Shown: positions 26,470 to 63,494, numbered from the stretch's first letter. The stretch is DNA of 64,000 nucleotides from Candidatus Thorarchaeota archaeon (GCA_046758445.1 JBHIAE010000002.1:1-64000); one strand, 5' to 3'. Notes: a model not told the origin generated them from the sequence alone. A program made the numbers and translations.

Positions 26470-26596
26470 TGCTATCTCGACATTCTTCGGATACGACTCT
26501 CAAGGAAGGGACCCGAGAACAGTAGCTCTGAAATGGGAAAATGTGGCCAACTTAATTAGCCTTTGCGACCATTAGTAGTCGAGGGCGGAATCGCCA

Positions 26597-26932
26597 ATGT
26601 TGAAACGAGTGAGAGAGAGGGTTAGGAATTATCTTCTCTTTCTTCAAACTCTGGACCAAGAAAGGGGTGGGTGGGTCCGTCGTGTTGGTTTCCCGGTTGG
26701 CATGATTTTCATAGCAGGCGTCATAGTCTTCCAAGTGGTAACATATACCCAAGTGATTCCTGCAGACCTGATGCCTATCTTCATTATCGTCTATGTTGTT
26801 GTGCAGTTAGTCTTGGGTGTCATCATGATCGCGGCCTATCTAGTGGCCTATGGAAGAGCTGGTTGGTACTGCATGACAGTAGCGGGAATAGTTGGTGTCC
26901 TGTTCATAGTTGTGTGGCTTCTCTGGAGATGA
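26597..26932 (+). CDS. Small 3-TM membrane protein (island cargo)
   Basis: Three hydrophobic helices; converges on 5S fragment A. Confidence 0.6.
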   Translation: MLKRVRERVRNYLLFLQTLDQERGGWVRRVGFPVGMIFIAGVIVFQVVTYTQVIPADLMPIFIIVYVVVQLVLGVIMIAAYLVAYGRAGWYCMTVAGIVGVLFIVVWLLWR

Positions 26933-27125
26933 CACACAGAAACAGCTGGTAGCAGAGATTAACCAACATCGTTCAGTCCATCACCAGATGTCCTTTGGTG
27001 ATAGAAGATCTCGCCATGTGATCATGGAATTTGATATCGATTGCATCCTGCTCTAGTGAGGAATGATGAGCATGGAAATGGTGGAACGCAGAAGTTTCTT
27101 GAGTCGAAACTCACTCAAAACAAGA

Positions 27126-27183
27126 AATGGAAAATGTGGCAGCCTGCAGGCCTGTCACGCGCTCGCGCAGATCTCCTGCAACG
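27126..27183 (-). repeat. 5S rRNA 3'-end fragment A (inverted)
   Basis: Minus strand CGTTGCAGGAGAT-----CTGCGCGAGCGCGTGACAGGCCTGCAGGCTGCCACATTTTCC; 20-nt exact match (27151-27170) to 5S 29371-29390. Confidence 0.85.
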
Positions 27184-27313
27184 GAACCACATCAATTCAA
27201 TATAGGTAATCCTTGAATCTACTCTCTGAAAGACTCGTTAGAGGTGTGGACGATTCAAGCTTCCATGAAAAACCGCTGGCAGTCACAGGACCGAAGGTCC
27301 AGATGCGTCGGAA

Positions 27314-28369
27314 CTATCCAGCGCATAGAGGACTGCCAGCTAGCTTCTCCAATCTCTTATACTTTGTCCTCACCAGCTCATCTCTCATGAACCTGTATGG
27401 CTCTTGCTTCTTCAGCATGTGGAAACACGCCACTGCGATCTCCCTTGCAACTGCCACATAGGCCTTGGACTTGCCTCTTCTCTCGCTTATCCTCCTGAAC
27501 TTCTTCTGGAAGTGGTCGTCGTATCTCACAGCTGAGTGTGCCACCTGAACCAGTGCCCATCTTGGTGATGGCTCCATGATAGAGCCTCTCTCCACTCTGA
27601 GTGACCTTCGGAGCCAGACCGAGCCAGCTGGCGAGCTTGCTCGAAGTCGGGAACCTGTCGATGTCGCCGATCTCGCTGACAAACAACATTGCGACATAGT
27701 AGTCCACTCCGGGGATGGTCATCAGTAGTCTGATCCTCTCATCATCCACTGCTCTCTGTGCTATTGTCCTCTCCACATCCTCTACGAGTCTACTGAGGGC
27801 CTCAATCTGATTGAGATAGGTCTGTAGGATGAAACCTTCAGTTGTTGGCAGCTCTAGTTTCTTCAGCCACTTCATGCCAGCCTTCCCCCACAGAGTGCTT
27901 CCGGGATATCGTGGGACATCACACCTGTCAAGGAGCGCGTGGATTCGATTCTTGACCCTGGCCCTATCACGGACCAGGTTCATCCTCACACGTGTCAGCT
28001 CACGGACATCTCTGACTTCGGCAGGGGGCACATAGCACGGAGCCACTAGGTCTGCCCTCAACAGGTCTGCGAGCATGGCAGCATCAACCTTGTCACTCTT
28101 CAGTCTGGCCTCAGCAATCGCTTTTGTCTTCGAGGGATTGGAGAGGATGACCTCCACACCATTCTCCTCAAGTGTAGGAACAGCCTGAGCCACAGGTTTC
28201 CGGTGCTCTCAATCACAGCCTTGGCAGGTCTTGCTCCAATGGCCTTGAGTAGTCTGGTGAATCCCTTTCGGGTGTTGAGAAACCTGAACTCTCTCAGGAT
28301 CTTTCCATTCGTAGCTTTGATACAGGCATAGCAGAACTTCTTGTGCACGTCGATTCCAATGTAGATCAG
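27314..28369 (-). pseudogene. IS110 transposase with two frameshifts
   Basis: IYIGIDVHK, AVIESTG, KSDKVDA, TIPGV, GLAPKVTQSG, RWALVQ, AYVAVAR split over three frames; breaks near 28177 and 27558. Confidence 0.9.
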
Positions 28370-28396
28370 TCTGACCACCTCATGCATCAGCTCTAT

Positions 28397-28497
28397 GCGG
28401 CAGCCTTCCATTCGCTCTCAGTGGAGCATTTCGATAGCCGCTCTGTCTGGCCCAGTCTCCTTCACGACCTCACTCGGGTCAAGCTTAAAGTCGGCCA
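28397..28497 (-). ncRNA. Candidate IS110 bridge RNA (two stem-internal loop-hairpin modules)
   Basis: Module 1 (28448-28497) loop UUUAAGCUU matches the flank TTCAAGCTT. Module 2 (28397-28441) loop strands UAUCG and AUGGAA match the predicted circle junction TATCGTTTCCAT. Confidence 0.5.
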
Positions 28498-28773
28498 GCC
28501 GACGCATAGGGGACTTTCAGTCATGGTTCTGCTAGAGGTTTTTCATATCGTTTCCTCCCAAAGGGCAGGCTTGGTGCTTTGGGGGGACTGGGATACTACG
28601 AACTGGCTATAGTAATGAGTCCAGAACCTTTCTCCGTCCCAGACTGTGCCAAGGTCGGAGTCCATGAAATTGTAGTACTTATGCACTCCGAACTCCTCCC
28701 TCTCCTGAGTGATTGAGTCTACCAAGTACAAGATGCTAAGGTGGTACCAACAATGACTCTCAAAAACAGTTCG

Positions 28774-28965
28774 CTAGTATCGACTTCTCACAATTGTCAC
28801 ATAATAGACCAAGGACGTAACAATGACCGCGAGAAACAGTAACCATACTAACTGGTGCATCCATAGAGGGTCCAAGTTGGCGACGAAGATCCCTCCTATC
28901 GAGAAGAGTACAACCTCAAGAATCAGCAGGTTCCGCAATGCTAATCGATGTACGGTCAGGTCCAT
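28774..28965 (-). CDS. Small 2-TM membrane protein
   Basis: 63 aa, GAGGAGGT before the ATG, two hydrophobic helices. Confidence 0.6.
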   Translation of the reverse strand: MDLTVHRLALRNLLILEVVLFSIGGIFVANLDPLWMHQLVWLLFLAVIVTSLVYYVTIVRSRY

Positions 28966-29225
28966 ACCTCCTCATATGATATCAATCGCTTTTGTCCTCT
29001 CTTCTTGTCACAAATGGAATAGTATGCAATTTTCAGAGGGTACGACCAGAGTCACTGTGTTTTCACGTTTTGGAACAGAGTAGGAGCTGATTCTCATACA
29101 GCTCCTTATGCTCTAGTTGATCTCTTGGTGTCAGCTTCCCCCTTTGTCGGCACACCTAGTTAATTCGAGGGATTGAGTTCAGACGTTCGTGGAATGAAAA
29201 GAAACCATAGAGACCTAGAGCAATC

Positions 29226-29240
29226 TTTAAAAACTATATA
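29226..29240 (+). promoter_or_regulatory. TATA-like promoter of the 5S rRNA gene
   Basis: TTTAAAAACTATATA about 20-30 nt upstream of the 5S 5' end. Confidence 0.6.
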
Positions 29241-29257
29241 GGCGACCAACGGCTTGA

Positions 29258-29404
29258 TGCCGGCCATAGGTCCTAGGGCTCACCCGATCCCATTCCGAAC
29301 TCGGCAGTTAAAAGCTATTGGAGTCATTCCATGAGCTGACTTCGGCTAGGATCGTTGCGGAAGATGTGCGCTGCGCGAGCGCGTGACAGGTCCGTAAGCC
29401 GGCA
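29258..29404 (+). rRNA. rrf: 5S rRNA (147 nt, with about 30-nt expansion)
   Basis: Helix I TGCCGGC/GCCGGCA, CATAG, helix II GGTCCTAG/CTAGGATC, loop C CCCGATCCCATTCCGAACTCGG, GCGAGC hairpin tip; followed by T-rich tracts. Confidence 0.92.
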
Positions 29405-29822
29405 CATTTTCCTTTTACCGATTTTTCTGATGTGATAACCCAATTGCGTCACGAATCTCGTCTTTGAAGATTCCAACAACAATACTAGATACTGCTGTAG
29501 CTACTGAAACCACCACAGGATTGCCGCTCAGTGATAGGTGGACTCCAAAGCATTAGGACAAATGTGGTCAAGCACGTTGCGAAGGCATGGGGCTCTGAGT
29601 CCAAGTATGCAAAGTCCTGCCTGCGTCAGCCCGCAAAACAGGTGCCATGGTGATTAGGTTAGGTATGCGCTTGCTTGAAAACGCGTTGTTCTTAGACCTC
29701 GTACGCCACAAGCTTATGGAAGTCTAGCTGCAGACCCGAAGAGATCTCTCGTGAGTTCTGCCAGACAAGATCTTAAGTCGGCCCATTCAGCTTGATGAGT
29801 GTTGTCAAAGGGTGGTGCATAA

Positions 29823-30640
29823 ATGAATACCAGGAGTGCAGCTCTGAGAGTTTCTCTGTTATTGGTCCTTTGCCTTTCCCAGGTCAGCTCAGCATCTTCT
29901 CATTCACAGACACTTGCCAATCCTTTGATGCGCTCCGACTCTTCCTCAGGTGGGCCTTACATCTCTTGGCCACCACCACCCATCCGGACCTATTTGTGGA
30001 TGGTGCATATACGGGTCAGACTCAAGATGTGTTTGAATACCAGACCATGGTGAATGACTCCGATGGAGTTGATGTTGTCCTATTCCGATTCAAATGGGAA
30101 GGCGACGATGACTGGCTGAACGGGACGACTGTCAGGACTGAGGGTGATGAGTTTCAAGGCACATACAAGGGCAACCTGTCCTGGCCTGCACCTGGTGGAG
30201 GGACCTTTCAGTTCAAAGTATTTGCCAATGATACCCTTGGAAACTGGAATGAAACCAGTCCGATGACTGTCCATTTCGGTTATCTCTATTTCCCCTTTTA
30301 CTACATTCCTCAGTTCTGGCTATTGGTCACATGCGTTCTGATCGTGCCTCCGCTGACACTGGTCGCAGTTAGGAGGCTGAAACGCAGGGTTTCTGGCTAC
30401 TCCAAGAGCTTCAGACAACTACAGGCTGGAGGAATGAGGACCTCAGTCAAACTGGTGCTGACTGGACTCTTGGCATTTGTAGCATTGTTATCAACTGGCT
30501 ACACGTTGTCTATGGCCGGGGGGTCGCTGAACGCCGGGCTCGGTTCAGTTCAGGCCGCACATGGAGTCCTGGGGGTCAGCGTAGGCCTGATAGCGGTCGT
30601 CGTGCCTTCTTATATCATGGTTCAAGTGCTGAAGATGTAG
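29823..30640 (+). pseudogene. Frameshifted secreted, membrane-anchored protein (paralog 1), read through into a small membrane ORF
   Basis: Signal peptide MNTRSAALRVSLLLVLCL in one frame; DSDGVDVV...FANDTLGNW plus TM in another; shift at CCACCACCACCC (29970-29981); internal GGAGGA-ATG at 30434. Confidence 0.65.
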
Positions 30641-30718
30641 AGGTTCGCCCACGTGAAAGTTTCCAGGTAGGCGAGGAACCTCTCTCTCTGAACTGGTAGG
30701 AAGCTCTGCTTGTTTTTG

Positions 30719-31279
30719 TCAAGTCTTGGGCCGCAACATCCCTCGTCTTAGAGTCACACCAACCGCCATTATCAATGTTCCCACTCCAATGACGACCAGA
30801 ACCAACACAGGCGTGGGGTCAGGGGCTGGCCAGTCCCATGTGTAATAGTGTTGGACAACATCTGAAACACCACTATGACCGAGTGTGTCGTTAGCCACGT
30901 ACCGGATATCCCAGACATAGACCCCAGGTTCAGGGACTTCGACATGAAGATATGCCCGATAACGAGACCTCGTGGAGTTCTCATCCACGTCCTGCATGGT
31001 GATGTTAGACCATAGACCCTCAGTCCGGTTTCTGTATGAGGCTATGACAGTCTCGAGCCCATCTGGGTCTTCAACTGTGACTAGGAAGGTGATAATGGTC
31101 TCAGGATCGAATCCATCTGCATAGGAATCTCTATAGTCTGAGAATGTGGGTCCCTGACCGTTGCTCAGTGCATGGCAGGACCTGAGAAAGCATTGTGGCT
31201 CTTTGGTCCACGTAGGAGAAACACACATTAGGATGACCCAAGTGAGAACGGTCATCCTCAACAAGGAGATACCTGCCAT
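30719..31279 (-). CDS. Secreted, C-terminally anchored protein (paralog 2)
   Basis: Signal peptide, GPTF, DPDGLETV, VANDTLGH, TM plus basic tail; the track start 31384 is probably too long. Confidence 0.75.
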   Translation of the reverse strand: MAGISLLRMTVLTWVILMCVSPTWTKEPQCFLRSCHALSNGQGPTFSDYRDSYADGFDPETIITFLVTVEDPDGLETVIASYRNRTEGLWSNITMQDVDENSTRSRYRAYLHVEVPEPGVYVWDIRYVANDTLGHSGVSDVVQHYYTWDWPAPDPTPVLVLVVIGVGTLIMAVGVTLRRGMLRPKT

Positions 31280-31509
31280 CACACCCACCATTCTAGAGTA
31301 TGTGTGACTCCCGATATAACCTAACTCCAATTCGACCGTTGGGATTGCAGAACTCAATAGCCGCCTATTCTTAAAAGTTGGCATAACACGAGGCTAGAGT
31401 ACTGTGTCGTTAGGATAATCTGTATATGAGTGGAGGACTAGTGTAGGTCAACCACTGGATCAGCACAGCACAGGGCCTTCCTTTCGCCTATCATGCGTAC
31501 TCCTCGATG

Positions 31510-31539
31510 CAGGTCCGCAAGCCGGCACATTCTCCTTTT
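31510..31539 (+). repeat. 5S rRNA 3'-end fragment B
   Basis: CAGGTCCGCAAGCCGGCACATTCTCCTTTT vs 5S CAGGTCCGTAAGCCGGCACATTTTCCTTTT (28/30). Confidence 0.85.
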
Positions 31540-31644
31540 GAATGAAGACTAACGAGCTCTAGCAATGGCAATCATTGTCGTCATTTGTCATAGTCCTTGT
31601 CAGGCATGATTGAAATCCATAAATGAAGAACTAACCATACTAGT

Positions 31645-32277
31645 TTGATCGAAATGCTGTCAGGAATACTGCGGATTTTGAAGGCCACTTCCATTCTTCT
31701 GATGGTCTTCCTGTCTGCCTCGACCCAAAGTACGATTCTGCACAATGACCAGTTAGAACCAGCAGGGGTTTTGGATGCCTATGTGATCAGTTCCGAAGGG
31801 CCATCCTTCAACTACCCTCATGGCAATAGGTCGCATGATCTCATTCAAACTCCTGACCCACTAGTAATCCGGGTAGGAATTGAGGTTGAAGTGGTTGATC
31901 CTGACGGAGTTGACACTGTAATTGGAAGCTGGGCTAATGCGCATGACCCTTATGACCTAGAACTCGCATGGGTCAACGTGACGATGCAATATACCCCGAC
32001 AGAGATGTACCCAGACTTGTATACTGCTTGGGTTCTCAACTACACTTGGGGTATAGACGACTGGGGGTCTTTCTGGTATAACAAGGCATATGCCAATGAT
32101 ACTCTTGGACATTGGTCTACCTCCGCAGTCTGGTATTCAAGTTTCTCTGTGATTGCGACTCCGCCTTCTCCAAATGCGTTCATTATTGGCTTCATCTATG
32201 TTGTGGGGATTCTGGCTATTGTCATAGTATATGCCTCAATACAGTGGCCAAGAATTCAGGGATTACTGAACAGGTGA
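31645..32277 (+). CDS. Secreted, C-terminally anchored protein (paralog 3)
   Basis: Signal peptide, GPSF, DPDGVDTV, AYANDTLGHW, C-terminal TM. Confidence 0.8.
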   Translation: MIEMLSGILRILKATSILLMVFLSASTQSTILHNDQLEPAGVLDAYVISSEGPSFNYPHGNRSHDLIQTPDPLVIRVGIEVEVVDPDGVDTVIGSWANAHDPYDLELAWVNVTMQYTPTEMYPDLYTAWVLNYTWGIDDWGSFWYNKAYANDTLGHWSTSAVWYSSFSVIATPPSPNAFIIGFIYVVGILAIVIVYASIQWPRIQGLLNR

Positions 32278-32413
32278 TGGGCGTATCAAATGAGATCAGG
32301 GTATAGTTGCCGATCGCGGTGTCATTGCTTATTGGCATCGCAACGTTGGGAGTCCTCTTCCTGAGAGTTAGGTCAGGAGAAAGGACTAGGGCAAGGTCGA
32401 TTGCTCATGATGA

Positions 32414-32470
32414 AGGAGATGTGCGCTGCGCGAGCGCGTGACAGGCCTGCAAGCCGGCACGTCTTCCTTC
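32414..32470 (+). repeat. 5S rRNA 3'-end fragment C
   Basis: 29-nt exact match (32417-32445 = 29362-29390); 41/44 identity through AAGCCGGCAC. Confidence 0.92.
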
Positions 32471-32494
32471 TCTGAAATCGCGTAGTCAAAGTGA

Positions 32495-32803
32495 CTAATA
32501 AGGCGAGGATGAAAACGACGATCTCTTCAATCCTCTTCTCAGGAGGAGGAAACCATCCAGAAACACCACAATCGTGATCAGTGCAGGCAGCAGTCGTAGC
32601 TCCAACGGAGGCTGCCAGCCATGATGGTCAGCAAAGAAGATACTGGCGAGGATAAGGATACTGGAAAAGGATAGCATAGCAAATGGAGCGAGCAAAAACA
32701 TGCAGGATGCATCTGGTTCATCAAGGACTCGCGGTATCGCTACACGCAGAATGACATATAGAACAAGCCCAAACCCAAAAAGAGCAAAGATCTCCAAGTT
32801 CAC
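32495..32803 (-). CDS. Small 3-TM membrane protein
   Basis: 102 aa hydrophobic ORF converging on fragment C. Confidence 0.6.
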   Translation of the reverse strand: MNLEIFALFGFGLVLYVILRVAIPRVLDEPDASCMFLLAPFAMLSFSSILILASIFFADHHGWQPPLELRLLPALITIVVFLDGFLLLRRGLKRSSFSSSPY

Positions 32804-32820
32804 AAGTAATCATATCCTCG

Positions 32821-33636
32821 TTACATGCATGGTCTGTAGTCATTTCTTCTTCCAAGCCAGTCCCCAATGAGGCCACCAGACACCATCGACACAATCAGAA
32901 GCCAAGGCATGCGTAGCCACCAAGGCATGACCGAAAAGCGTGGGCCAATGAGTAATGCTAACGGGAGGGCTATGAACCAGATACCGATGAAACACGACCC
33001 CATGAGAATGAAGATTGCCCGCCAAATTCGCCGGGACGGAACTGTGCGGATGTAGTACGCTGAGGCAAAGCCAAGTGGCGTGACTACGACATAAGCCAAG
33101 GTGTTTGAAGCCAGCAAAAGTTCAAGATTAACTAGCATTATGTACACGATCAGCATTGCAACGAAAGGTACAACTCCTATGAGGAGCCAGTAGCTCCTGA
33201 CACTTCGTTTCCACCAGAATGGTATCCGGAAGTCCATAGTTTGGTTCTCTTCCTTCAACTGATCCATATTCGCTATCTTGATGTCTGGATTTGCTCTAGG
33301 TCTTACTTCAATGACTCGAGTTCCTTCAGCAAAATCAGTATTCCCAAGCAGGTCTGCCAATCGCTTTACAGCTTGTTCCTCATCCAGACTTCCTACGTTC
33401 AATCCCTCTGTTGCATTGAAAATGCAAGACTGGAGAAGAGTGGCGGACGTGCCAAACGGCCCATCAAAAAGGTCAGCAGCTTCCAATGAGTCCCATAATT
33501 GCTCGGCGATGTTGAGATAGCGGTCGCCATTCCATGGCTGGTTAACCCAGTCTTGGATGATATTGTGAAGTGTGTCTTCTACATCGTTTTCTGATTCTCT
33601 CTTCGTACGATTCATCTCAAGCGCCAGCTTTACCAC
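32821..33636 (-). CDS. Hypothetical protein, soluble N-domain plus about 4 TM helices
   Basis: 271-aa ORF with hydrophobic C-terminal half. Confidence 0.7.
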   Translation of the reverse strand: MVKLALEMNRTKRESENDVEDTLHNIIQDWVNQPWNGDRYLNIAEQLWDSLEAADLFDGPFGTSATLLQSCIFNATEGLNVGSLDEEQAVKRLADLLGNTDFAEGTRVIEVRPRANPDIKIANMDQLKEENQTMDFRIPFWWKRSVRSYWLLIGVVPFVAMLIVYIMLVNLELLLASNTLAYVVVTPLGFASAYYIRTVPSRRIWRAIFILMGSCFIGIWFIALPLALLIGPRFSVMPWWLRMPWLLIVSMVSGGLIGDWLGRRNDYRPCM

Positions 33637-33731
33637 TCACGAGTGATAGTGCTATTCCCACGGACCGCTGATTGTTGTCGACAACTAAGGTATCCTCTTG
33701 AAACATCTTAAACGCTTGGTTGAGGAAAAGC

Positions 33732-33763
33732 GACAGATTCGCAAGCAGGCACAACCTCATTTT
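33732..33763 (+). repeat. Degenerate 5S rRNA 3'-end fragment D
   Basis: GACAGATTCGCAAGCAGGCACA vs GACAGGTCCGTAAGCCGGCACA (18/22), followed by a T-tract. Confidence 0.55.
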
Positions 33764-33808
33764 GCACAATCGCATACAAAATGCATATCCATTGTAGTTG
33801 ATAGGATC

Positions 33809-34057
33809 CTAGCAGTCCCGGAGTCTGTCAAGAGCTAGGAGCACTAGACCTGATACGGCAATAATAACTCCCAGAGGGAAGAGAAAGAGTAGACCTGCAG
33901 TCCCCAATAGAATTGGCCCTGTTGAATATGGAGGTCTGTTGGCCCAGTACCGTTCCATTAAGTATGCATCAAGAAGAACTCCGAAGATCGCAATAGTGAT
34001 GCCAATCAAGACAAGTCTAATTCCCTTGGAACGAGTTACGGAGCTCTGTTGTTTCAT
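33809..34057 (-). CDS. Small 2-TM membrane protein
   Basis: 82 aa, two hydrophobic helices, converging on fragment D. Confidence 0.6.
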   Translation of the reverse strand: MKQQSSVTRSKGIRLVLIGITIAIFGVLLDAYLMERYWANRPPYSTGPILLGTAGLLFLFPLGVIIAVSGLVLLALDRLRDC

Positions 34058-34171
34058 AAGAAAATCGTCATCTAAATGGCACTATCGATATGTAATTCTT
34101 CCTATAATCATCTTAGTAAAGGTCTGAATAATGATGAAGGGAATCATGAACCATGACTGGAACATCTTTAT

Positions 34172-34378
34172 TTGACGACCCTTCCCGACATCCGACTGTG
34201 GAAGAACATGGCTGGCAAAGCACGCTCTGGAAAAGAGGTCGCTCAAAAGGGGAGATACATGATTGTCGATAGGAAGATGCGCATTGACTGGATAACCTCC
34301 AAGATTCCTCTCCTGGATGAGGAACACCTCAAGCTCGTAGAAGGGATAATCAGGAGATTCATGAAGGAGGACGTCTAG
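34172..34378 (+). CDS. Small hypothetical protein
   Basis: Amphipathic helical ORF; start may be ATG 34208 or 34259. Confidence 0.4.
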   Translation: MTTLPDIRLWKNMAGKARSGKEVAQKGRYMIVDRKMRIDWITSKIPLLDEEHLKLVEGIIRRFMKEDV

Positions 34379-34519
34379 ACCTCTCCTGAGCACCTCCAAC
34401 AGCATTCCGAAACTGCCTCCAATAGGGTTTTCGGAGAATCACTGGCGAAACCTTCATATCATGACCTGAATTCAGGCTCATGCTTGTATTGAAGCAGGCA
34501 CTCGGACTGGCCTCTTAAT

Positions 34520-34655
34520 GGGGCGGTGGCCTAGTCCGGCATGGCGACGGGCTCCAGATCTGGACTCACTTCGAGTCCGAAAGCACGGGGTCGTGATGCT
34601 GACCGTCGTCGAAGACACTCGTCGATCGTGGGTTCGAATCCCACTCGCCCCACCA
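34520..34655 (+). tRNA. tRNA-Trp(CCA) with 59-nt intron at 37/38 (34558-34616)
   Basis: Acceptor GGGGCGG/TCGCCCC, anticodon loop CT-CCA-G|A, T-arm GTGGGTTCGAATCCCAC, encoded CCA. Confidence 0.92.
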
Positions 34656-34716
34656 TTTCTATTATCCTGTCACTTACCTTGACAACGATTAAGTAGGTCG
34701 AACCGACTGCCGTGAC

Positions 34717-35424
34717 GTGCTGACAATGAACCAAGCGGGCTCCAGGGAGATTGTGCTCGAAGGCACAGCAGGGGTGGATGAAGCAGGACGGGGCCCCATG
34801 ATTGGCCCGTTGGTGGTCTGCGGTGTCCTGTTTGACAGTGAAGCAATCCCTGATTTGAAACGCCTTGGAGTTCGGGACTCAAAGACCCTGGCTCCGAAGC
34901 GACGGAGCGAGCTTGCAGCATCAGTCCAGACGATGGCCAAGAAGGTTGAAACTAGGTCTGTCACCGCAGAGGAGATTGACAGACTCAGAGGGAGAGGAGT
35001 TTCACTCAACGAGATTGAGGTTCACCAGTTCGCATCCGTCCTGAAAGAGTTGAGTCCCAAAGTAGCATACTTGGATGCAGCAGACGTAAAGGCTGACAGG
35101 TTTGGTCAGGCAGTCGGAGAACGTAGCGGGCTTCTAGCACTTGGATGTAATCTGATCTCAGAACATAAGGCAGACTCAAAGTACCCCGTGGTTTCTGCCG
35201 CGTCAATAATTGCAAAGGAGCAGCGAGAAACTATCATTTCTAACCTTCATGAAAGGCATGGGGACTTTGGATCAGGGTATCCTAATGATCCAAAATCAGT
35301 GAGGTTCGTTCAGAGTCTTGCAGATGAAGGTCGGGAGATTCCATCCATAATTCGCAAGAGTTGGGAGTCTGTTAGAAGAATCCTAGACAATGCTGCCACC
35401 ATGCAATCTACTCTAGATGACTGA
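34717..35424 (+). CDS. rnhB: Ribonuclease HII
   Basis: GVDEAGRGPMIGPL, VRDSK, VSAASIIAK, GSGYP. Confidence 0.96.
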   Translation: MLTMNQAGSREIVLEGTAGVDEAGRGPMIGPLVVCGVLFDSEAIPDLKRLGVRDSKTLAPKRRSELAASVQTMAKKVETRSVTAEEIDRLRGRGVSLNEIEVHQFASVLKELSPKVAYLDAADVKADRFGQAVGERSGLLALGCNLISEHKADSKYPVVSAASIIAKEQRETIISNLHERHGDFGSGYPNDPKSVRFVQSLADEGREIPSIIRKSWESVRRILDNAATMQSTLDD

Positions 35425-35428
35425 TGGA

Positions 35429-36418
35429 CTACTGCTCTGACCTTTCGTCGATTATCTTCTTCAGCTCACGAGGTTTGTCTATGTCATCCAGTTCAAGCTG
35501 CCTTATCACAGGCACTTCCGATGCACAGTCTTCTGTCTGCCCTTCCTCAACAATGACTACTGCGTCTGATTCAGTGACCCTTGAAACGCTCCTCATGATC
35601 TCCATGCGTTTCTGTAGAGTCCAACTCCTGATTGAGCCAACTCCAGACATCAACGGAGGCCCATCCTCCGTTGCAACCGCGTGGAAGGGCGCTCTGTCAG
35701 TCCACCATACACTCATTCCCAGCTTCTCAAAGAAGTCATTGACACGTCTTCTGATGCCTTCAGTTTCATCGTCAGCTGACGGAGGCGATGATGTGGTGGA
35801 TTGAGGTAGGTCTCTGTGAGCCACAGTTTCGGACAGGAGATCAACGGGTATCACTAGGCCTGTAAGGTCAATCTCAAGTTCGTTCTCAAGGCGGTCTGCC
35901 ACCTCAGCACTGACGTCTATCTCATCCTTCTCATAGGCCAAGATTGCTCGTGCAGATACCTGAATGCAGTCTGCAAGCTCTTCCTGGGTCATGCTGCGCG
36001 ATAGGCGCACCTCTTTCAGCTTCGCGCCATCAATCGAAACGAATCGTCCGCCTCTCTGGATAAACTCTCTGGGCTTCCCCTCTTGTACAACCATGCTTTG
36101 GAAGCTGTGTGGTGCAACTGTAGGCACACCGTATCTCCTGTATACAACTCCTTCGTCCAAGATTCCTCTTCGAGTCTTCCTGCCTACAATGAGAGGAACT
36201 GCGTCAAAGAACTGAGCCACGAGTTGGAGAGCCATCGCGTCTTCTTTGGTGAATGCGTCTATGTTGGTGAGAGCCTTGACTAGAACAAGCTGCTCTCCCC
36301 TTCGTGCCACCAAATCAAAGCAGCTTGGCCTGACAATGCATTGGGTGGATATATCGAACCCAGCCTCTTCTAGGTTGGAAGTGACCTCTTGGATTAGCTG
36401 AGTTCGTGCCTTTGTCAT
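35429..36418 (-). CDS. Archaeal HTH transcriptional regulator (COG1395 type)
   Basis: CFDLVARR N-domain; XRE HTH MTQEELADCIQVSARAILAYE. Confidence 0.85.
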   Translation of the reverse strand: MTKARTQLIQEVTSNLEEAGFDISTQCIVRPSCFDLVARRGEQLVLVKALTNIDAFTKEDAMALQLVAQFFDAVPLIVGRKTRRGILDEGVVYRRYGVPTVAPHSFQSMVVQEGKPREFIQRGGRFVSIDGAKLKEVRLSRSMTQEELADCIQVSARAILAYEKDEIDVSAEVADRLENELEIDLTGLVIPVDLLSETVAHRDLPQSTTSSPPSADDETEGIRRRVNDFFEKLGMSVWWTDRAPFHAVATEDGPPLMSGVGSIRSWTLQKRMEIMRSVSRVTESDAVVIVEEGQTEDCASEVPVIRQLELDDIDKPRELKKIIDERSEQ

Positions 36419-36513
36419 CGCAAGGACCTTGTCCCCATTTCCTCTTGAAGGTTTTTAGGGGTTGCTGAATGTCACCCCTTGCATCAGGGCAAGAATCCCG
36501 AGAACGTCTTTGT

Positions 36514-36957
36514 CTAACCATTTTCGACGGTAGTAACGAAGCCAATGCATGTGGTGGAGGGAAACTTAAGCCGGACAGCCTGTACCTGTGGACGCACAAG
36601 CCTCTCAACAGGCCTCCAGTTCCAAAAGTCCTTCCATTCTAGGTCAACTTGTCCTAGGACACGATGAATCAAGAACAGTTCCATCTTTTCGCCCGCGATT
36701 GTATAGATTCCAGGTCCATAGTCCATTCTACGTAAGATTACTATCGGAAGCTTGACCTCCTCGTGGAATCGCGAGGGCACCTCCTTGGCAATCTTCGCTA
36801 TCTCCTCTTTTTTGAGAAAGGACACCTCACCTCCCCTCGTGACATAGTGAGGCGAATCAGATTCCATCAGCTCGCTTAGCGTACTTCTCTTCACAGGCAT
36901 GTGGTCGTTTATGGAGTCAATCTCGTGTTCCAGTATCTTATCAATAGGCGAAGTCAA
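36514..36957 (-). CDS. DUF61/UPF0216 family protein
   Basis: INDHMP..RSTLSEL, VKLPIVI; conserved position after fibrillarin. Confidence 0.75.
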   Translation of the reverse strand: MTSPIDKILEHEIDSINDHMPVKRSTLSELMESDSPHYVTRGGEVSFLKKEEIAKIAKEVPSRFHEEVKLPIVILRRMDYGPGIYTIAGEKMELFLIHRVLGQVDLEWKDFWNWRPVERLVRPQVQAVRLKFPSTTCIGFVTTVENG

Positions 36958-37652
36958 GATAGTTCCTCCGTGACCCGGCAGACCACAAATCGGTGGTCCT
37001 TCTCAAGCGGTTCAAGGTCGATATTCTCAACCACTTCGAGCCCATAGCCATCAAGCTTGGCAATCTCTTGACTGTAGATGGTATCAACAGGGGCGGTGGA
37101 ATCAATACTTCTGGCCTTGATTGCCATGAGCCCCCAGGCGCCAAAGGAGCAGAATGTCTTGATGTTCTGAAAGAAGATCCTGGCTTGGTCTGGTTGTGCG
37201 ATGTCTTGATACACTACATCGATAGGTCCGGCCACAAGTGAAGCATATCTCGTCGGATACCTTGCATCTTCAACAAGAGGGACCACATTAGTACGTGACT
37301 CAGCCAGCCCTAGAAGCCCCCTGGCAGCCCTCGGTGAGAACTCAACGGCGTATACTACACCCTCAGGACCCACAATGTCTGAGCAATGACTTGTGGTTGT
37401 TCCAGATGCTGCTCCAAGATAGAGTACTCTTGAGCCTGGCTGGATTGGCATCTGCACAAGACCTCTCTGAATGGCCGCTGCAAGTTTCGATCTCCTCGGA
37501 GTCCAAATTCGATATCCCTGATCTCCATCAACCACGACCTTCTCGCCATAGACGCTCTGGCGCGGAACGAGTGTGCAAGTAGCGAGCGAGGACTTTCCCC
37601 TGTCTTGAACCGTGAAGATGCCCGGAAACTTATGCGGTACTATCTTGGGCAC
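36954..37652 (-). CDS. flpA: Fibrillarin
   Basis: RSKLAAAI, VLYLGAASGTT, AVEFS, DIAQPDQ, IKARSID. Confidence 0.96.
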   Translation of the reverse strand: MPKIVPHKFPGIFTVQDRGKSSLATCTLVPRQSVYGEKVVVDGDQGYRIWTPRRSKLAAAIQRGLVQMPIQPGSRVLYLGAASGTTTSHCSDIVGPEGVVYAVEFSPRAARGLLGLAESRTNVVPLVEDARYPTRYASLVAGPIDVVYQDIAQPDQARIFFQNIKTFCSFGAWGLMAIKARSIDSTAPVDTIYSQEIAKLDGYGLEVVENIDLEPLEKDHRFVVCRVTEELS

Positions 37653-38926
37653 TACCTCCTTCCCCCTCGCTTCTTCCTCAGCTTTCCGCGGTCCTTCCGG
37701 GCCGGTCTAGTTCGTTTCCTAGGAGGTTTCGGAGGAGGTGCTTCAACATTCTGCTTCCGAATCTCCTCTACCCTCTCTAAGAACTTCTCTCTCAGACTCT
37801 CTCCAACATCTCGTTTGGAGTATGCATCAATACGAGCAGCAATGGAAACCTTGCCAGCCAAGGCCCTGGCAATCTTCCCCCTCTGCCAATAGGGGGCTGT
37901 GTGAATCTCTGGTACTTGGTATATTATACCGTGCTTTGGAGGATCGGCACCACTCTTGAGGCTCCTGAATAGTGCTCTCTCTGCACCAAATACCTGGACA
38001 GTGCTAGAGGGTTTCTGAGCTAGTTCCTTCAGAGACCCGGCGAGGCTTATCAGACGTGCACCGACCAATGGTCCAACCAATACGGTGATATTGGGTGCGA
38101 CTGAGCTCATCATTGCCGTCACATACTCTTCGAGTTCCACTCTCTTCTTGTAGAGGCTCTGAATGCCACTCGAGAAGGCCCGGATTATGTCCAAGTCTGA
38201 GGATTGCAGCGGTGCCCCTATGTCCTTTCCCGCGCTCTCCATCACCGAATCAATCAACGAATCTGGAAGACCGATTGCTGACAGACATTCCCTACTGATC
38301 TCAGCACGGCCACCACATGCCTCTACTATCTTTGAGAAGACATCCTGGTCCTCAACCAGACTGCTCAGAAACGGATGGTGAAGCGAATACCATTCTCTGA
38401 GCCTCATGACCAGAACGTTGATTGACTTATCTATCTCCCCAATGGCATCAATTGCATGCTTTACGAGGAGGTCTTTCTCTTCGCTGGCGGCCGATATCTT
38501 CGCCCTGGCCAGCTGAATTGATACCTCCCGCCTAAACGAGTCAATCGCTGCCGTAGATTCCATTACTCCAGAGTCTATGAGAAGTGAGTCCTGACCATCA
38601 CGAAACCATTTGACTACCGACGAGTCCTCTTCTGTTGATGTCGGAATCTCTGTGATTTGTGCCAGTGTGCGCCCCAAAGCACTGTTCTCCACTATCAAAC
38701 TCTCAGTCTTGAGCTCTTTCAGATTCTCTGCCACAGTCCGTAGATTCTCTGTAGCTTCACCCTGACCAATGGCCTCAATCTCTGAAGCCGCGACACTAGT
38801 ATCAGGATATGTAAGGACCTTTGATACTACTTCCCCATTCTTGTCAAGCGTGAAGAAACCGAAGCTTGTGAGGACTAGATAGGTCGACAACGTGTGTAAC
38901 CCCGAGGATGAGTGACTGGGTGTCAC
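37652..38926 (-). CDS. nop5: Nop5/Nop56 C/D RNP protein
   Basis: RLREWY, APNITVLVG, VQVFGAERALF, PKHGIIY, GKIARALA; start uncertain. Confidence 0.95.
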   Translation of the reverse strand: MTPSHSSSGLHTLSTYLVLTSFGFFTLDKNGEVVSKVLTYPDTSVAASEIEAIGQGEATENLRTVAENLKELKTESLIVENSALGRTLAQITEIPTSTEEDSSVVKWFRDGQDSLLIDSGVMESTAAIDSFRREVSIQLARAKISAASEEKDLLVKHAIDAIGEIDKSINVLVMRLREWYSLHHPFLSSLVEDQDVFSKIVEACGGRAEISRECLSAIGLPDSLIDSVMESAGKDIGAPLQSSDLDIIRAFSSGIQSLYKKRVELEEYVTAMMSSVAPNITVLVGPLVGARLISLAGSLKELAQKPSSTVQVFGAERALFRSLKSGADPPKHGIIYQVPEIHTAPYWQRGKIARALAGKVSIAARIDAYSKRDVGESLREKFLERVEEIRKQNVEAPPPKPPRKRTRPARKDRGKLRKKRGGRR

Positions 38927-39023
38927 TCGGATAAGTTTGACTATTTAGTAGACTGGCATTCTTGGATGAAAGGCCGCTTTCCTTATTACAGCTTACAGGT
39001 CCTTAACCCACCCAGGTGTCTTA

Positions 39024-39893
39024 GTGAAGATAGAAGGATATTGGCTGGCCTCGGGAATCCTGGGAGTGACGGGTTCAATCCTCCGTCGTGTAAGTGAGTC
39101 TGGAGCCGACGCTGTTGTATCGAAATCTATTGGTGCCAAACCACGAACGGGACATCCAGGGCCAATACTTGCCACCTCACATGGAGGACTATTGAATGCA
39201 GTTGGCCTCACAAACCCGGGAATTGACGCATTTGGCGATGAGATGGACGCTCTCAGAGGCGCTGGAGTTCCAGTTGTTCTAAGTGTCTTCGGCAGTGAAG
39301 TGGCTGAAATAGCTGAAGTTGCAGTCAAGGGCGCGAAGATGCAACCCGATGCCATAGAGCTCAACCTCTCATGTCCACATGCAGAGATTGGTCAGATCTC
39401 TCATGACCCGAATCTCACATACGAGTACGTCAAGGCAGTCAAGAAGGCAGTTGACTGCCCGGTATTTGCGAAGATCACTCCCAATGCCTCAGACGTTGCT
39501 TCCATAGGCTCTGCCGCAGAACGTGCTGGTGCGGATGCCATTGTGGCCGTCAACACTGTCCGTGCGATGAAGATTGACATCCATGAGAAGCGCCCGGTAC
39601 TAGGAAACAAGGTTGGAGGCCTTTCAGGCCCTCCGATATTCCCGATAGCCGTCAGATGTGTCTATGACCTCTACAACGCTTTGTCAATACCCATAATCGG
39701 TGTAGGTGGGGTGTCTACATGGGAGGATGCAGTGGAGATGCATCTTGCAGGTGCCAGTGCAATTCAGATCGGCACTGCCTTGCTCTCTGGGCTTGATATC
39801 TTTCGAAGAGTCAAACAAGGCGTACAGGACTACCTTGAGAAGGAAGGCTATTCAAAGGTGACAGAGATTGTTGGTGAAGCAGGGAGGGACTAG
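39024..39893 (+). CDS. pyrD: Dihydroorotate dehydrogenase B, catalytic subunit
   Basis: NAVGLTNPG, ELNLSCPH, KITPN, GGLSG, IIGVGG. Confidence 0.93.
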   Translation: MKIEGYWLASGILGVTGSILRRVSESGADAVVSKSIGAKPRTGHPGPILATSHGGLLNAVGLTNPGIDAFGDEMDALRGAGVPVVLSVFGSEVAEIAEVAVKGAKMQPDAIELNLSCPHAEIGQISHDPNLTYEYVKAVKKAVDCPVFAKITPNASDVASIGSAAERAGADAIVAVNTVRAMKIDIHEKRPVLGNKVGGLSGPPIFPIAVRCVYDLYNALSIPIIGVGGVSTWEDAVEMHLAGASAIQIGTALLSGLDIFRRVKQGVQDYLEKEGYSKVTEIVGEAGRD

Positions 39894-39896
39894 CTT

Positions 39897-40724
39897 TTGG
39901 ACGTCGAGCAGCTAATGGGCAGTCCCATGACCGTGCCGGTTTCTCAGGTAATCAAAGAGAACAAGACCACCCGAACTCTTGTCTTCAAGCACCCGAAAGA
40001 AACCTTGAGCATCCGTCCCGGGCAGTTCCTGATGGTTTGGATTCCAGGGGTTGACGAGATTCCAATGAGTGTGTCATCTTGGAATCCTCCCTCGGTAGGT
40101 GTCACCGTATCACCCATTGGTGAGGCAACAGACGCTCTTGCGTCTGTACGAAAGGGACAACGAATTGGTGTGCGGGGGCCCTTCGGTACGCATTTTGACA
40201 CCGACTGTAACAACGCCATAATTGTTGGTGGTGGGATCGGAATTGCTCCTCTTAGACCACTGGCCTACGAACTAATCCGCCTCAACAAGAGCGTGACTCT
40301 CTTGATTGCTGCGAAGACAAAGGGAGAACTCATCTACGCGAACGAATTCAAAGCAGTGTCTGCTGAAGGATTCAAACTGGAGATATCCACGGATGACGGG
40401 TCCGTGGGTTTCAAGGGACTCGCACCAGAAGCGGCGCGGGAGATTACATCTTCAGAAACCCCTGATGTCCTGTATACTTGTGGCCCCGAGCTTATGATGT
40501 TGAGTCTGCACAGGCTTGCTATGGAGAGAGGAATGGGCTTCCAAGCATCATTGGAGCGATTCATGAAGTGCGGTTGTGGACTATGTGGTACGTGCGCGCT
40601 TGACCCCACAGGAGACCTTGTATGCGTCGAGGGACCTGTCTTTAGAGGAGAGCATCTCGATAGAATCAGTGAGTTTGGTAGATACAACCGTGATTCTATG
40701 GGTCTGAAGAAACAGTGTCAATGA
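39897..40724 (+). CDS. pyrK: Dihydroorotate dehydrogenase electron transfer subunit
   Basis: PGQFLMVW, RGPFG, GGGIGIAP, CGP, CGCGLCGTC, VCVEGPVF. Confidence 0.93.
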   Translation: MDVEQLMGSPMTVPVSQVIKENKTTRTLVFKHPKETLSIRPGQFLMVWIPGVDEIPMSVSSWNPPSVGVTVSPIGEATDALASVRKGQRIGVRGPFGTHFDTDCNNAIIVGGGIGIAPLRPLAYELIRLNKSVTLLIAAKTKGELIYANEFKAVSAEGFKLEISTDDGSVGFKGLAPEAAREITSSETPDVLYTCGPELMMLSLHRLAMERGMGFQASLERFMKCGCGLCGTCALDPTGDLVCVEGPVFRGEHLDRISEFGRYNRDSMGLKKQCQ

Positions 40725-40768
40725 GGTTGGGAGGGAAAAGCACTACCCAAAGATCAATCAGTAAATGC

Positions 40769-40933
40769 TTACCGACCAGCTTGGCCGGTGATCTTCCCCT
40801 TAATGAATCTCTTAACGTAGTTTCTCTTGTTACGGACACGTGGGATGGGTGTGTGGCGTTCGCGACCCTGAACCTTTGGAGTCGACTCACGAACCTTCCC
40901 GGCCTTCGTCAATGAACCGTGTGAACCAGGCAT
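40769..40933 (-). CDS. rps30e: 30S ribosomal protein S30e (eS30)
   Basis: [20 protein letters not shown] from ATG 40933. Confidence 0.95.
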
Positions 40934-41059
40934 TAGTCTAACCTCTTCAACAGGGTATTCACACCGATGTTCATGTTTTAAGGATTGCCTTGTGGAGTGC
41001 GCTTTCTGACAGTAGGTGACAGCCCTTTGTGAACAGAGCACATCTTTTAACCGCGATTA

Positions 41060-42676
41060 GTGGATAATTCGACCAGAATGCCTAATCCTGATGAGTATAT
41101 TCTGCACAGGGAGATAATTGACTCACTGCTGAGCTCAGAGAGAGCTCTTGACAGACGGGAAATCAATCGGATAAAGAATGAAGTCTGTGCGAAGTACCGT
41201 GTTTCAAAGGTCCCAACGAACGCAGATATTCTCCAAACAGCGATTCCCGAGGAACTAGAGATACTTCAGCCTCTATTGCAGAAGCGACCTGTTCGCACAG
41301 TGTCAGGTGTCGCAGTTGTAGCAGCAATGACAGAACCCCACAAGTGCCCTCATGGGGAGTGTGCGTATTGTCCTGGTGGACCTGCTGCAGGAGTACCACA
41401 GAGCTATACCGGGCATGAACCTGCAACTATGAGAGGCCTGCAGCATGACTTTGACTCATTCAGGCAGGTGGAGAACAGGCTCAATCAGCTAGACACAATT
41501 GGGCATTCTATCCAGAAGGTCGAACTGATAGTCATGGGTGGTGACTGGTGCTCGAAGGATCCAGCCTATAGAGAGTCATTTGTCAAGGGCTGTTTTGATG
41601 CAATGAATAGGGCAATCAGTGATACCCCAGCTCAATCTCGGAAGAGGAACGAAACTGCCGAGGTCCGTAACGTGGGACTCACGTTCGAAACTCGGCCAGA
41701 TTGGGTGACTGCTGATAGTGTTGATGAAATGCTAAGGATGGGCGCGACGCGAGTGGAAATTGGTGTTCAAACACTCTCGGATGAGGTCTTGGAACGAGTT
41801 CAGAGGGGCCATCTGCTTGAGCAGACTGTCCAAGCCACAAAGATCCTCAGAGACAGTGGACTGAAAGTATGCTATCATGTGATGCCCGGTCTACCAGGAA
41901 ACACTCCAGATTCAGACCTCCAAGACTTTCGGACGCTGTTCACTGATTCTAAACTCCAACCGGACATGTTGAAGATCTATCCCACGCTTGTGGTGAAGAA
42001 CACCAAGTTATTCGAGTGGTGGAAGGAGGGTTCCTATAGTCCATACTCTGATGAACAGGTCGTCGAACTCGTTTCTGACGCAGTCAGTGAGATGCCCGAG
42101 TACGTACGAATCCAAAGGATGCAAAGAGACATACCGCTCCATCAGATAGAGGCGGGGCTCAGCAAAGGCAATCTTCGAGAGCTGGTTCATCATCGAATGC
42201 AGGAGAAAGGTCTGCGGAATCCAACCATCCGATATAGGGAGATAGGCCATTACCAGATGCGGACCGGGAAGAAGATTGATTATGAACACGTCGAGTTGGT
42301 GCGTCGCGACTACAAAGCCGCAGATGGACTGGAGATCTTTCTCTCCTTTGAGGAGCAAGAATCAGACGTCATCTTTGGATTTCTAAGGCTTCGTCTGCCT
42401 AGTAATTATGCTCATCGTCCGGAGGTCAAACAAAGTCCCTGCGCGATAATCAGGGAGCTCCGAGTCTACGGCCCTGTTGTCGAGATTGGTGAGAGAAACC
42501 CTGGTGCCTGGCAGCATTTAGGCCTTGGAGAACGCATGCTCTCAGAGGCAGAACGAATTGGACTTGATGAGTTCGAAGTCAATAGGCTTGTTGTGAATAG
42601 TGGGATTGGGGTCAAAGAGTACTATCGTTCTCTTGGATTCAAGGATATCGGCCCATACCTCGAGAAGGAGTTTTAG
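41060..42676 (+). CDS. elp3: Elp3 tRNA uridine(34) acetyltransferase (radical SAM plus GNAT)
   Basis: CPHGECAYCPGG, QSYTGHEPA, ETRPD, KIYPTLV, WQHLGLG. Confidence 0.95.
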   Translation: MDNSTRMPNPDEYILHREIIDSLLSSERALDRREINRIKNEVCAKYRVSKVPTNADILQTAIPEELEILQPLLQKRPVRTVSGVAVVAAMTEPHKCPHGECAYCPGGPAAGVPQSYTGHEPATMRGLQHDFDSFRQVENRLNQLDTIGHSIQKVELIVMGGDWCSKDPAYRESFVKGCFDAMNRAISDTPAQSRKRNETAEVRNVGLTFETRPDWVTADSVDEMLRMGATRVEIGVQTLSDEVLERVQRGHLLEQTVQATKILRDSGLKVCYHVMPGLPGNTPDSDLQDFRTLFTDSKLQPDMLKIYPTLVVKNTKLFEWWKEGSYSPYSDEQVVELVSDAVSEMPEYVRIQRMQRDIPLHQIEAGLSKGNLRELVHHRMQEKGLRNPTIRYREIGHYQMRTGKKIDYEHVELVRRDYKAADGLEIFLSFEEQESDVIFGFLRLRLPSNYAHRPEVKQSPCAIIRELRVYGPVVEIGERNPGAWQHLGLGERMLSEAERIGLDEFEVNRLVVNSGIGVKEYYRSLGFKDIGPYLEKEF

Positions 42677-46373: not shown

Positions 46374-46494
46374 TGGCGCCGAGGGTGAGATTTGAACTCA
46401 CGAGTGCATAGCACACTGGTTCGCTTGGCATCCTAGCATCCTAAGATACTGGTTTTCAAGACCAGCGCCTTAATCCGGGCTTGGCTACCTCGGC
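46374..46494 (-). tRNA. tRNA-Ser(UGA) with 33-nt intron at 37/38 (46422-46454)
   Basis: GCCGAGG/CCTCGGC, G discriminator plus CCA, long variable arm, BHB central helix CTTG/CAAG. Confidence 0.92.
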
Positions 46495-63416: not shown

Positions 63417-63494
63417 GGGTCGGTGGTCTAGCTTGGCTATGATTCCTGGTTTGGGTCCAGGGGATCGTGAGTTCAAATCTCACCCGGCCCACCA
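63417..63494 (+). tRNA. tRNA-Pro(UGG)
   Basis: GGGTCGG/CCGGCCC, CCTGG-TTTGGGT-CCAGG, GTGAGTTCAAATCTCAC, encoded CCA. Confidence 0.95.

Follow-up and report, generated by a model that had tools for sequence, protein, structure and literature searches.

Xer-dependent integrative elements (IMEX) and the pdif modules of Acinetobacter plasmids are small modules without a recombinase of their own that are flanked by copies of a host site and moved by a host enzyme in trans. Elements targeting the 3′ part of tRNA and tmRNA genes, including tandem arrays at one gene, are referred to in PMC8813620, which cites Williams 2002; that paper also gives an Asgard example, the provirus HeimV1 at tRNA-Gly. Archaeal integrons and CALINs (attC clusters without an integrase) are enriched in Asgard archaea (PMC9668308). 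Variable loci at 5S rRNA genes are likewise on record: the hypervariable island HVR2 of SAR11 lies between the 23S and 5S genes (PMC2217521), and Pyrococcus has a variable locus at 5S/tRNA-Asp (bioRxiv 10.64898/2026.09.28.752058). In the full-text literature that we searched, no report of 5S rRNA as an attachment site was found. Here we describe a locus in a stretch of 64,000 nucleotides (nt) from Candidatus Thorarchaeota archaeon (GCA_046758445.1 JBHIAE010000002.1:1-64000; the whole stretch is called the window), where the 3′ half of the 5S rRNA gene recurs as a repeat between small genes. The repeat was named FRAG; in its longest form it consists of 5S positions ~64-120, that is, the helix V/IV arm and the 3′ strand of helix I, followed by a T-rich tail of ~15 nt. 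FRAG is probably (at roughly 0.6) the recombination site of a family of tiny gene cassettes, 0.4-3 kb long with one to a few genes and their own promoters, in one genus of Thorarchaeota.

The window corresponds to contig C2 of a metagenome bin (G000) of 3.25 Mb and 113 contigs. It was compared with 16 congeners (17 genus genomes including G000), with 41 genomes of the family and with metagenome contigs such as L107 and L110. An empty and an occupied site can be seen side by side in two congeners, G004 and G006, which are ~93% identical in the flanks. In G004, a closed chromosome (CP070658), the 5S gene stands directly beside a DUF1512 gene. Contig C155 of G006 matches G004 from DUF1512 into the 5S gene, where homology ends at position ~65, and contig C14 of G006 carries an intact 120-nt 5S gene with a normal upstream region, the tRNA gene and the RNase HII gene; the two contigs overlap by exactly 77 nt. 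When joined, they read DUF1512, FRAG(-), a carbon-nitrogen (CN) hydrolase gene, 5S(-), tRNA, RNase HII. The insert measures 1,082 bp from repeat to repeat, is bounded by direct FRAGs and holds a single gene, coding for a CN hydrolase of 266 aa (Pfam E = 1.9e-33), and therefore leaves no room for an integrase. The rebuilt 5S gene is of full length and scores 62.3 bits in Rfam, where the gathering score for 5S is 38 bits. No close homologue of the cassette gene was found among the 41 family genomes, and relatives at 72-98% occur on metagenome contigs. The outer FRAG mixes two types: in helix V its 5′ strand is of the element type (TG, GTTGTGGG), and the 3′ strand (CCTGCAAG) and the tail are of the host type, as would be expected from a crossover within the repeat. 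As a whole, the structure is what one crossover between the 5S gene and a FRAG carried by a cassette would be expected to leave. Empty sites are also available for other comparisons (G004 and G008 versus G006, G010 and G007 versus G000, and G005 versus G015), and direct repeats of the 5S 3′ part are found in the window as well, where the 5S gene and three downstream copies are co-oriented.

The first-pass annotation of the window had noticed that the 5S 3′ end with its T-rich tail recurs downstream of the gene in the same orientation. Our repeat search agrees, with end coordinates within 3 nt, and gives four direct copies, at 29387-29416 (the end of the gene itself), 31510-31539 (93%), 32442-32471 (80%) and 33734-33763 (73%). 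The spacings between them, 2123, 932 and 1292 nt, bear out the earlier segments of ~2.1, 0.9 and 1.3 kb, and the most distal copy is indeed the most decayed. The third direct copy reaches 53 nt at 91% (32417-32469), and an inverted copy of the 5S end was found at 27123-27170 (85%). Searches with an nhmmer profile made from 25 copies extended these matches. FRAG_A (27117-27186, -; E = 3.6e-16), the inverted repeat, lies in the ancestral 5S orientation, has the genus-typical helix I strand GCTGCCAC and is 97% identical to the genus-typical 5S over positions 84-121. FRAG_B (31510-31543, +; E = 2.9e-4) is truncated to about the last 30 nt of 5S and the tail. FRAG_C (32404-32478, +; E = 7.9e-19) is a near-full copy of the 3′ half with the element-type tail TTCCTTCTCTGA, identical (100%) to the genus-typical 5S over positions 72-112. 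FRAG_D (33734-33763, +) scores under the nhmmer threshold; its identity is borne out by L107, where the orthologous cassette ends in a well-preserved copy (4300-4341) at the corresponding position. In a search of the whole 3.25-Mb genome, FRAG matches were confined to the window locus (E = 2e-14, 4e-8 and 6e-6), and the nhmmer profile found none outside it either. The repeats of the window are far beyond chance and are not a dispersed repeat in G000. Scattering over the genome, which had been named beforehand as an outcome that would speak against the proposal, was not seen: FRAG occurs at one locus in G000 and at two or three in its relatives, always as arrays.

The locus of G000 has been extensively rebuilt. 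The ancestral, empty order, shared by the genus and by further genera of the family, is DUF1512(-), 5S(-) pointing its 3′ end toward DUF1512, 0-3 genes, an intron-bearing tRNA gene and RNase HII(+). The nearest relatives, G010 and G007 (~90% nt identity; DUF1512 93-95% at the aa level), have a plain 120-nt 5S gene beside DUF1512. Compared with them, G000 lacks the native 5S positions 1-107 and 56 nt of the promoter and has a 7.6-kb block (26548-34144) instead; homology with G010 ends at 26547 and resumes at 34145, and G010:C28 761-8619 matches 34145-42000 at 90%. Adjoining the DUF1512 gene, a 13-nt stump of the native 5S gene (~positions 108-120) remains with the native T-rich tail (A0, ~26527-26556, -); it can be aligned to the end of 5S and the adjoining downstream flank in G004, G006, G007 and G010. 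Rightwards, the block holds the gene m111 (26597-26932, +), FRAG_A(-), an IS110-family element (27249-28555, -), ~650 nt of unknown sequence, the 5S promoter region (29213-29255, +; TTTAAAAACTATATA), the 5S gene (29256-29407, +), three FRAG-bounded segments (+) and a last segment with the gene m82 (33809-34057, -). Its right boundary (34145-34652, +) consists of the distal part of the ancestral 5S upstream region, which stays at 34217-34378, and the intron-containing tRNA gene beside it (34520-34652); therefore, the 5S gene together with the array is inverted relative to the flanks.

The 5S gene of the window, the sole copy in the genome, is also a foreign one. It is 152 nt long and is recognised by Rfam at full length, with 32.4 bits, which is below the gathering score because ~32 nt are inserted in its middle. 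Aligned with 26 5S genes of Thorarchaeota, it proves close to the allele of G003, a more distant genome; over the first 56 nt the count of differences is 3 versus 12, and the 32-nt expansion is the same. The promoter region, which moved along with the gene, has homology to the sequence upstream of 5S in G003 and others. The native 5S gene was thus destroyed, and the working one is a G003-like allele. The expansion (29312-29345) follows helix III and is common to G003 and possibly to G023 of another genus, the match to the latter being 76% over positions 1-159; expanded and plain 120-nt forms are distributed against the genome phylogeny (G007 and G010 are plain).

A similar replacement was found in G015, whose contigs C146 and C14 overlap by 77 nt. 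Compared with its close relative G005 (96% nt identity in the flanks), G015 lacks 5S positions 1-64 together with 108 nt upstream; in their place stand 12.4 kb with a 5S gene that is only 86.5% identical and runs in the opposite orientation. The foreign alleles of G000 and G015 suggest that the 5S gene may be exchanged between species. Horizontal homogenisation of the 5S 3′ half was considered separately and discarded, the lower divergence of this half (0.084 versus 0.183) being explained by its invariant core. Relics of ~35 nt, consisting of the 5S end and the T-rich tail in inverted orientation, lie 65-100 nt upstream of the 5S start at undisturbed-looking loci (G011 L043 ~10007(-), G005 L044 ~10104(+), G002 L045 ~9898(-), G009 L015 ~1334(-)), and on contig L108 a complete FRAG lies inverted 1.3 kb upstream of 5S; it is therefore common for the 5S 5′ half to be enclosed by an inverted pair of FRAGs. 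The inversion and the foreign allele can be explained if such FRAGs recombined with each other or if the entire rearranged locus was imported from another species. A single FRAG-to-FRAG inversion was rejected as the entire history of the G000 locus, as the working 5S allele differs from that of the nearest relatives. Directly upstream of 5S, a gene for an Arf/Roc-type small GTPase is present in G015 (L038:12027-12914), G005, G011 and G002 and is not there in G000.

Multiple FRAGs were found in at least 9 of the 17 genus genomes, and no arrays in the 8 sister-genus genomes of the family that were searched. Same-orientation arrays reach 11-12 copies at distances of 0.4-3 kb; on G014:C20, 11-12 FRAGs, all (+), stand 0.4-2.2 kb apart over 14.8 kb. 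Arrays are also present in G015, G011, G009, G005, G002 and G001, and L107 holds four copies. The gene content downstream of 5S, which the first-pass annotation had proposed to compare between strains, differs in every relative. Homologous blocks shared between arrays begin or end inside FRAG. In one FRAG of G005, homology to the left partner extends to 5S ~101 and that to the right partner starts from ~80, so the exchange took place within the central stretch ~80-101, which is nearly invariant among copies. The same cassettes reappear in different company: an MFS cassette is preceded by a FRAG both at the 5S locus (in G015) and at another one (in G009), a 229-aa cassette with FRAGs on both sides in G014 is common to G005, and a 260-aa cassette is found behind a FRAG on two separate contigs of G014. 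From the window, the region of the predicted membrane protein m271 (32821-33636, -) recurs with the distal FRAG on L107 at 78% nt identity, between two FRAGs and with different neighbours, and the cassette gene P1 (29792-30640, +) recurs on L110 at 75% nt identity in another context. Both m271 and P1 are patchy within the genus; m271 has homologues in 3 of the 16 congeners, the one in G014 adjoining a FRAG, and P3 (31645-32277, +) has them only in G007 (34%).

This mosaic pattern largely refutes a local origin of the segments by tandem segmental duplication starting inside 5S, with the gene copies diverged and the 5S pieces carried along as passengers. Such duplications would be in line with the distant paralogy (24-31% by BLASTP) of P1, P2 (30719-31384, -) and P3, which lie in adjacent segments, with the recurrence of a ~160-aa membrane protein family in the G014 array, and with the co-orientation of copies within an array. 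Nevertheless, non-coding repeats at 80-97% cannot match the age of proteins at 25-30%, most neighbouring cassettes are mutually unrelated, a given cassette turns up at more than one locus and in more than one genome with other neighbours, and G006 gained a gene without a close homologue in the 41 family genomes. The tails point the same way. Those of FRAGs are T-rich and often end in ...TTTTCT(CT)GA, whereas undisturbed resident 5S tails read TCTCCTTATTCCAA or TCTCCTTCTGCC; FRAGs are therefore not local copies of the resident gene. We regard duplication as a very improbable origin.

FRAG arrays are not confined to the 5S gene. A second site is flanked on one side by the orthologue of G000:C3:33477-33974 and on the other by that of the ribosomal protein L10e gene (C3:34268); it harbours the main array in G011, G005, G001, G009, G014, G015 and G002 and is empty in G000. 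A third site is on G014:C156. As arrays exist away from 5S, the repeat acts as a cassette boundary by itself, and the 5S gene is one of several places for arrays. The earlier description of the arrays as anchored to 5S thus needs to be narrowed: arrays do occur at 5S, but those of congeners are found at two loci not adjoining it as well. The second site is located just upstream of the L10e gene (G000:C3:33974-34268; the array ends are on L048, L063, L061 and L041), and a promoter-like motif, CCTAGGCCATAATCCTTTTATT, marks the L10e gene and recurs in arrays after truncated FRAGs.

The restriction to two or three loci, rather than a genome-wide distribution, also bears on whether FRAG might be kept as a useful cis element (a terminator, an insulator or a 5S-derived small RNA), with recombination as a side effect. 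Every copy retains the terminator-like T-rich tail of 5S, copies stand 30-150 nt from gene ends, and the central core is nearly invariant in most of them, all of which would suit a function in cis. But the flanking genes are found in every orientation, the copy at 31510 sits between two divergent genes, the G000 copies decay, and the folding energy of FRAG DNA is no better than that of shuffled sequence (z = -0.3 to -1.0). A role of this kind as the reason for the repeats appears improbable to us.

In the window, each segment between copies encodes one or two predicted membrane proteins, without Pfam families and without a housekeeping gene; open reading frames (ORFs), hydropathy and Pfam here agree with the first-pass annotation. 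The first gene, m111, codes for 111 aa with four predicted membrane helices (ORF, hydropathy; no Pfam family) and has weak homologues (27%) in the arrays of G011 and G009. P1 and P2 share a segment and are membrane-anchored and glycoprotein-like. P3 is a 210-aa protein with a signal-like N-terminus and a C-terminal membrane anchor (ORF, hydropathy), and P1, P2 and P3 are predicted to have membrane anchors or segments and 4-5 N-glycosylation sequons. The cassette after FRAG_C is shared by m271 and m102 (32495-32803, -), another predicted membrane protein, and the last segment contains the small two-helix membrane gene m82 (ORF, hydropathy), which shares 29% identity with a small gene of the G014 array. 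The convergent small membrane gene noted behind each of copies A, C and D was confirmed. Surface proteins had been proposed as the cargo, but the arrays elsewhere hold more than these: alongside many small membrane proteins and the CN hydrolase, cassettes of congeners code for TPR, LRR, beta-helix and beta-propeller proteins, an MFS transporter, and a HAAS (PF22564) protein together with a PadR-type regulator. Relative to the repeat, cargo genes are found on either strand.

Under the explanation that we favour, a circular cassette with one FRAG would recombine with the 5S 3′ half or with any FRAG of an array, the crossover falling in the nearly invariant central stretch (5S ~80-101). The 5′ half of 5S would be joined to the incoming FRAG, so that the gene stays intact, and the old 3′ half would be displaced outward as a dead copy. 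Repeated insertion would generate a same-orientation array with the oldest and most decayed copies outermost, and recombination between FRAGs would shuffle, delete and invert cassettes and move them between loci and species. The G000 locus would represent an old, rearranged product, with at least four cassette segments, an inverted block, the native 5S gene lost, a foreign one in its place and a later IS110 insertion. The repeats, the pair of empty and occupied sites, the mosaic sharing of cassettes, the inversion and the foreign 5S gene have been shown; we infer both the circular intermediate and the enzyme. By our estimates, which are not measurements, host homologous recombination on 57-72 bp of identity is the somewhat likelier agent within this explanation, and an unlinked site-specific recombinase the somewhat less likely one; the clustering of exchanges in the core fits both routes, because the core is also the longest stretch of perfect identity. 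The first-pass annotation had viewed 5S as a site of serial capture. Of that view, the site in the 3′ half, the tiny cassettes without an integrase and the rebuilding of 5S stand, but the window's array is no simple head-to-tail series behind the resident 5S gene.

All Thorarchaeota 5S genes examined share an identical core of 29 nt, and the contigs found with the same 5S core are all titled Candidatus Thorarchaeota or Promethearchaeota. It is conceivable, though we would not yet bet on it, that this constitutes a new capture system: its site would be a self-contained 5S arm with a class-invariant core, worked by a new recombinase or by host recombination alone, any member could receive cassettes from any other because every Thorarchaeota 5S examined has this core, and 5S itself would be swappable between species.

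The first-pass annotation had noted the absence of an integrase, and no tyrosine recombinase was found in the window or on the array contigs. Pfam and PHROGs revealed no recombinase among ~40 array proteins, and neither an integrase nor a viral hallmark was found in over 100 kb of array sequence (nine genomes, three metagenome contigs). The tyrosine recombinases linked to 5S fragments that the annotation had suggested looking for did not turn up: PF00589 is present in 4 of the 17 genus genomes, including a Xer-like protein, and is never near an array. In G000, two tyrosine recombinases are encoded on contigs C34 and C52, which carry no FRAG. As a separate observation, a Xer-type chromosome resolvase appears to be absent across the genus, or else too diverged to be recognised (Pfam Phage_integrase in 4 of 17). 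Core matches in genome and metagenome contigs are 5S genes or further arrays, with no integrase-bearing element among them. These data have to be set against another explanation of the anatomy, namely that the segments are decayed remains of larger integrative elements (plasmids or viruses) that once encoded an integrase, carried an attP corresponding to the 5S 3′ half and later lost their integrase and replication genes. Direct repeats, a regenerated gene and tandem arrays are the classic anatomy of 3′-end targeting, the fixed 5′ edge of the repeat at ~64 resembles a defined attP boundary, and G000 has its two tyrosine recombinases elsewhere in the genome. However, the youngest event, that of G006 versus G004, is a 1.08-kb single-gene insert, the arrays lack the hallmarks named above, no FRAG accompanies the G000 integrases, viral contigs gave no match, and 13 of the 17 genus genomes are without PF00589. 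Decay from larger elements is thus unlikely in our view.

Two other candidates for the agent or the site were examined and rejected. The IS110 element has a frameshifted transposase (DEDD_Tnp_IS110 and Transposase_20 domains over three ORFs) and an end 62 nt from FRAG_A. At least five copies exist in the genome (C53, C6, C43, C86, C67/C96), with unrelated flanks and the ends ATGAAAAACC / GGTTTTTCAT. Being multi-copy, with unrelated flanks and broken here, it was dismissed as the agent and is taken as a later, unrelated insertion. A folded single-strand recombination site was dismissed on account of the unexceptional folding energy, and a regular expression for the attC core consensus (RYYYAAC...GTTRRRY) had no match on either strand of four arrays.

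Several observations weigh against a cassette system based on FRAG. No circular intermediate, free cassette or recombinase was seen, and the 28-nt FRAG core has no match in the viral contigs of IMG/VR. The ends of the arrays at the second locus are truncated FRAGs, and at least one cassette difference at that locus, of 5 kb between G015 and G002, is flanked by a 7-nt microhomology, ACAATCT, instead of FRAGs, so not all changes proceed via the repeat. The inverted arrangement of G000 needs extra events, and the explanation does not cover the first attachment of FRAG to a gene. The G000 copies are decaying (one is truncated, one is at 73%), and the system may be extinct in this genome. Finally, the genomes are all metagenome bins, and two key joins, those of G006 and G015, depend on 77-nt contig overlaps. 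This last point raises the question of an assembly artefact, in which co-occurring Thorarchaeota contigs would be misjoined via the conserved 5S 3′ half; the identical 29-nt core would facilitate it, and contigs often break in or near arrays. Against it, FRAG (at most 75 nt) is assumed to be shorter than typical short reads, its left flank is non-5S and could not be supplied by a canonical 5S gene, and copies differ by point changes. Moreover, the structures recur in independent assemblies made in different studies (YT5_051, TM1S.110, DZ1M.409, QM1B.10, CAJHYO and JGI contigs), which have orthologous cassette-plus-FRAG units in common. An artefact is hence extremely improbable, and we retain the cassette explanation.

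Some further observations were made alongside. Contigs L124 (Ga0118719_1005525) and L125 carry a run of small unrelated genes together with a relative of the G006 cassette gene (86% aa identity). Their intergenic repeats are CCATACTCTTTTCTTCACT, which is also present upstream of the G006 gene and is not found in the window, and a unit around the palindrome TTTGGACAGTCCAAA; no FRAG is present, and these contigs may represent another kind of cassette array. G000 has tRNA genes with long introns: ARAGORN reports only tRNA-Pro at 63417 in the window and overlooks the genes at 34520-34652, 46377-46494 and 62096-62202, which are 107-133 nt long, an alignment of the first showing a 63-nt intron.

If the cassette explanation holds, 5S rRNA would be added to the short list of structural RNA insertion sites, and integron-like arrays of tiny cassettes would be shown to exist without an integron integrase or attC in the archaea closest to eukaryotes. 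It would provide a concrete route for gene flow between Asgard species, which is currently debated (PMC13247210), and it suggests that horizontal, piecemeal replacement is possible even for an rRNA gene. A site of ~70 bp that takes cassettes without a dedicated enzyme might also help genetics in archaea lacking such tools.

By its anatomy, the system looks like integration of the tRNA/tmRNA type at a new target and without an integrase, and the form of the arrays resembles integrons and CALINs. As with tRNA/tmRNA elements, the insertion appears to take place in the 3′ part of a structural RNA gene that is rebuilt from an element-borne copy, the displaced 3′ fragment forms a direct repeat, and in serial arrays the older copies are more decayed. 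Unlike in those elements, the target is 5S rRNA, the units are 0.4-3 kb long with no integrase by the site, FRAG bounds arrays away from the target gene, and whole 5S alleles appear to be exchanged. The SAR11 and Pyrococcus islands share with our locus a stand-alone 5S gene marking a variable hot spot, and rRNA has been proposed there as the homology for exchange; yet these islands are without internal 5S fragments or cassettes, the rRNA genes serving as outer homology arms. Recombinase-less small modules, copies of a host site and tandem arrays at one chromosomal site are features in common with IMEX and pdif modules, whereas FRAG is unrelated to dif and tyrosine recombinases are present in only 4 of the 17 genus genomes. 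The likeness to integrons and CALINs lies in small, mostly single-gene cassettes, in one repeat of ~60-75 nt in one orientation, in the shuffling of cassettes between arrays and genomes, often with no integrase nearby, and in the first acquisition of the site by a cassette, which is an open problem for both. In contrast to integrons, no IntI was found on the array contigs, and there is no attI and no R''/R' attC cores; the FRAG cargo lies in both orientations with its own promoters instead of a common one, and the site is a piece of an essential rRNA gene, inside which insertion is possible.

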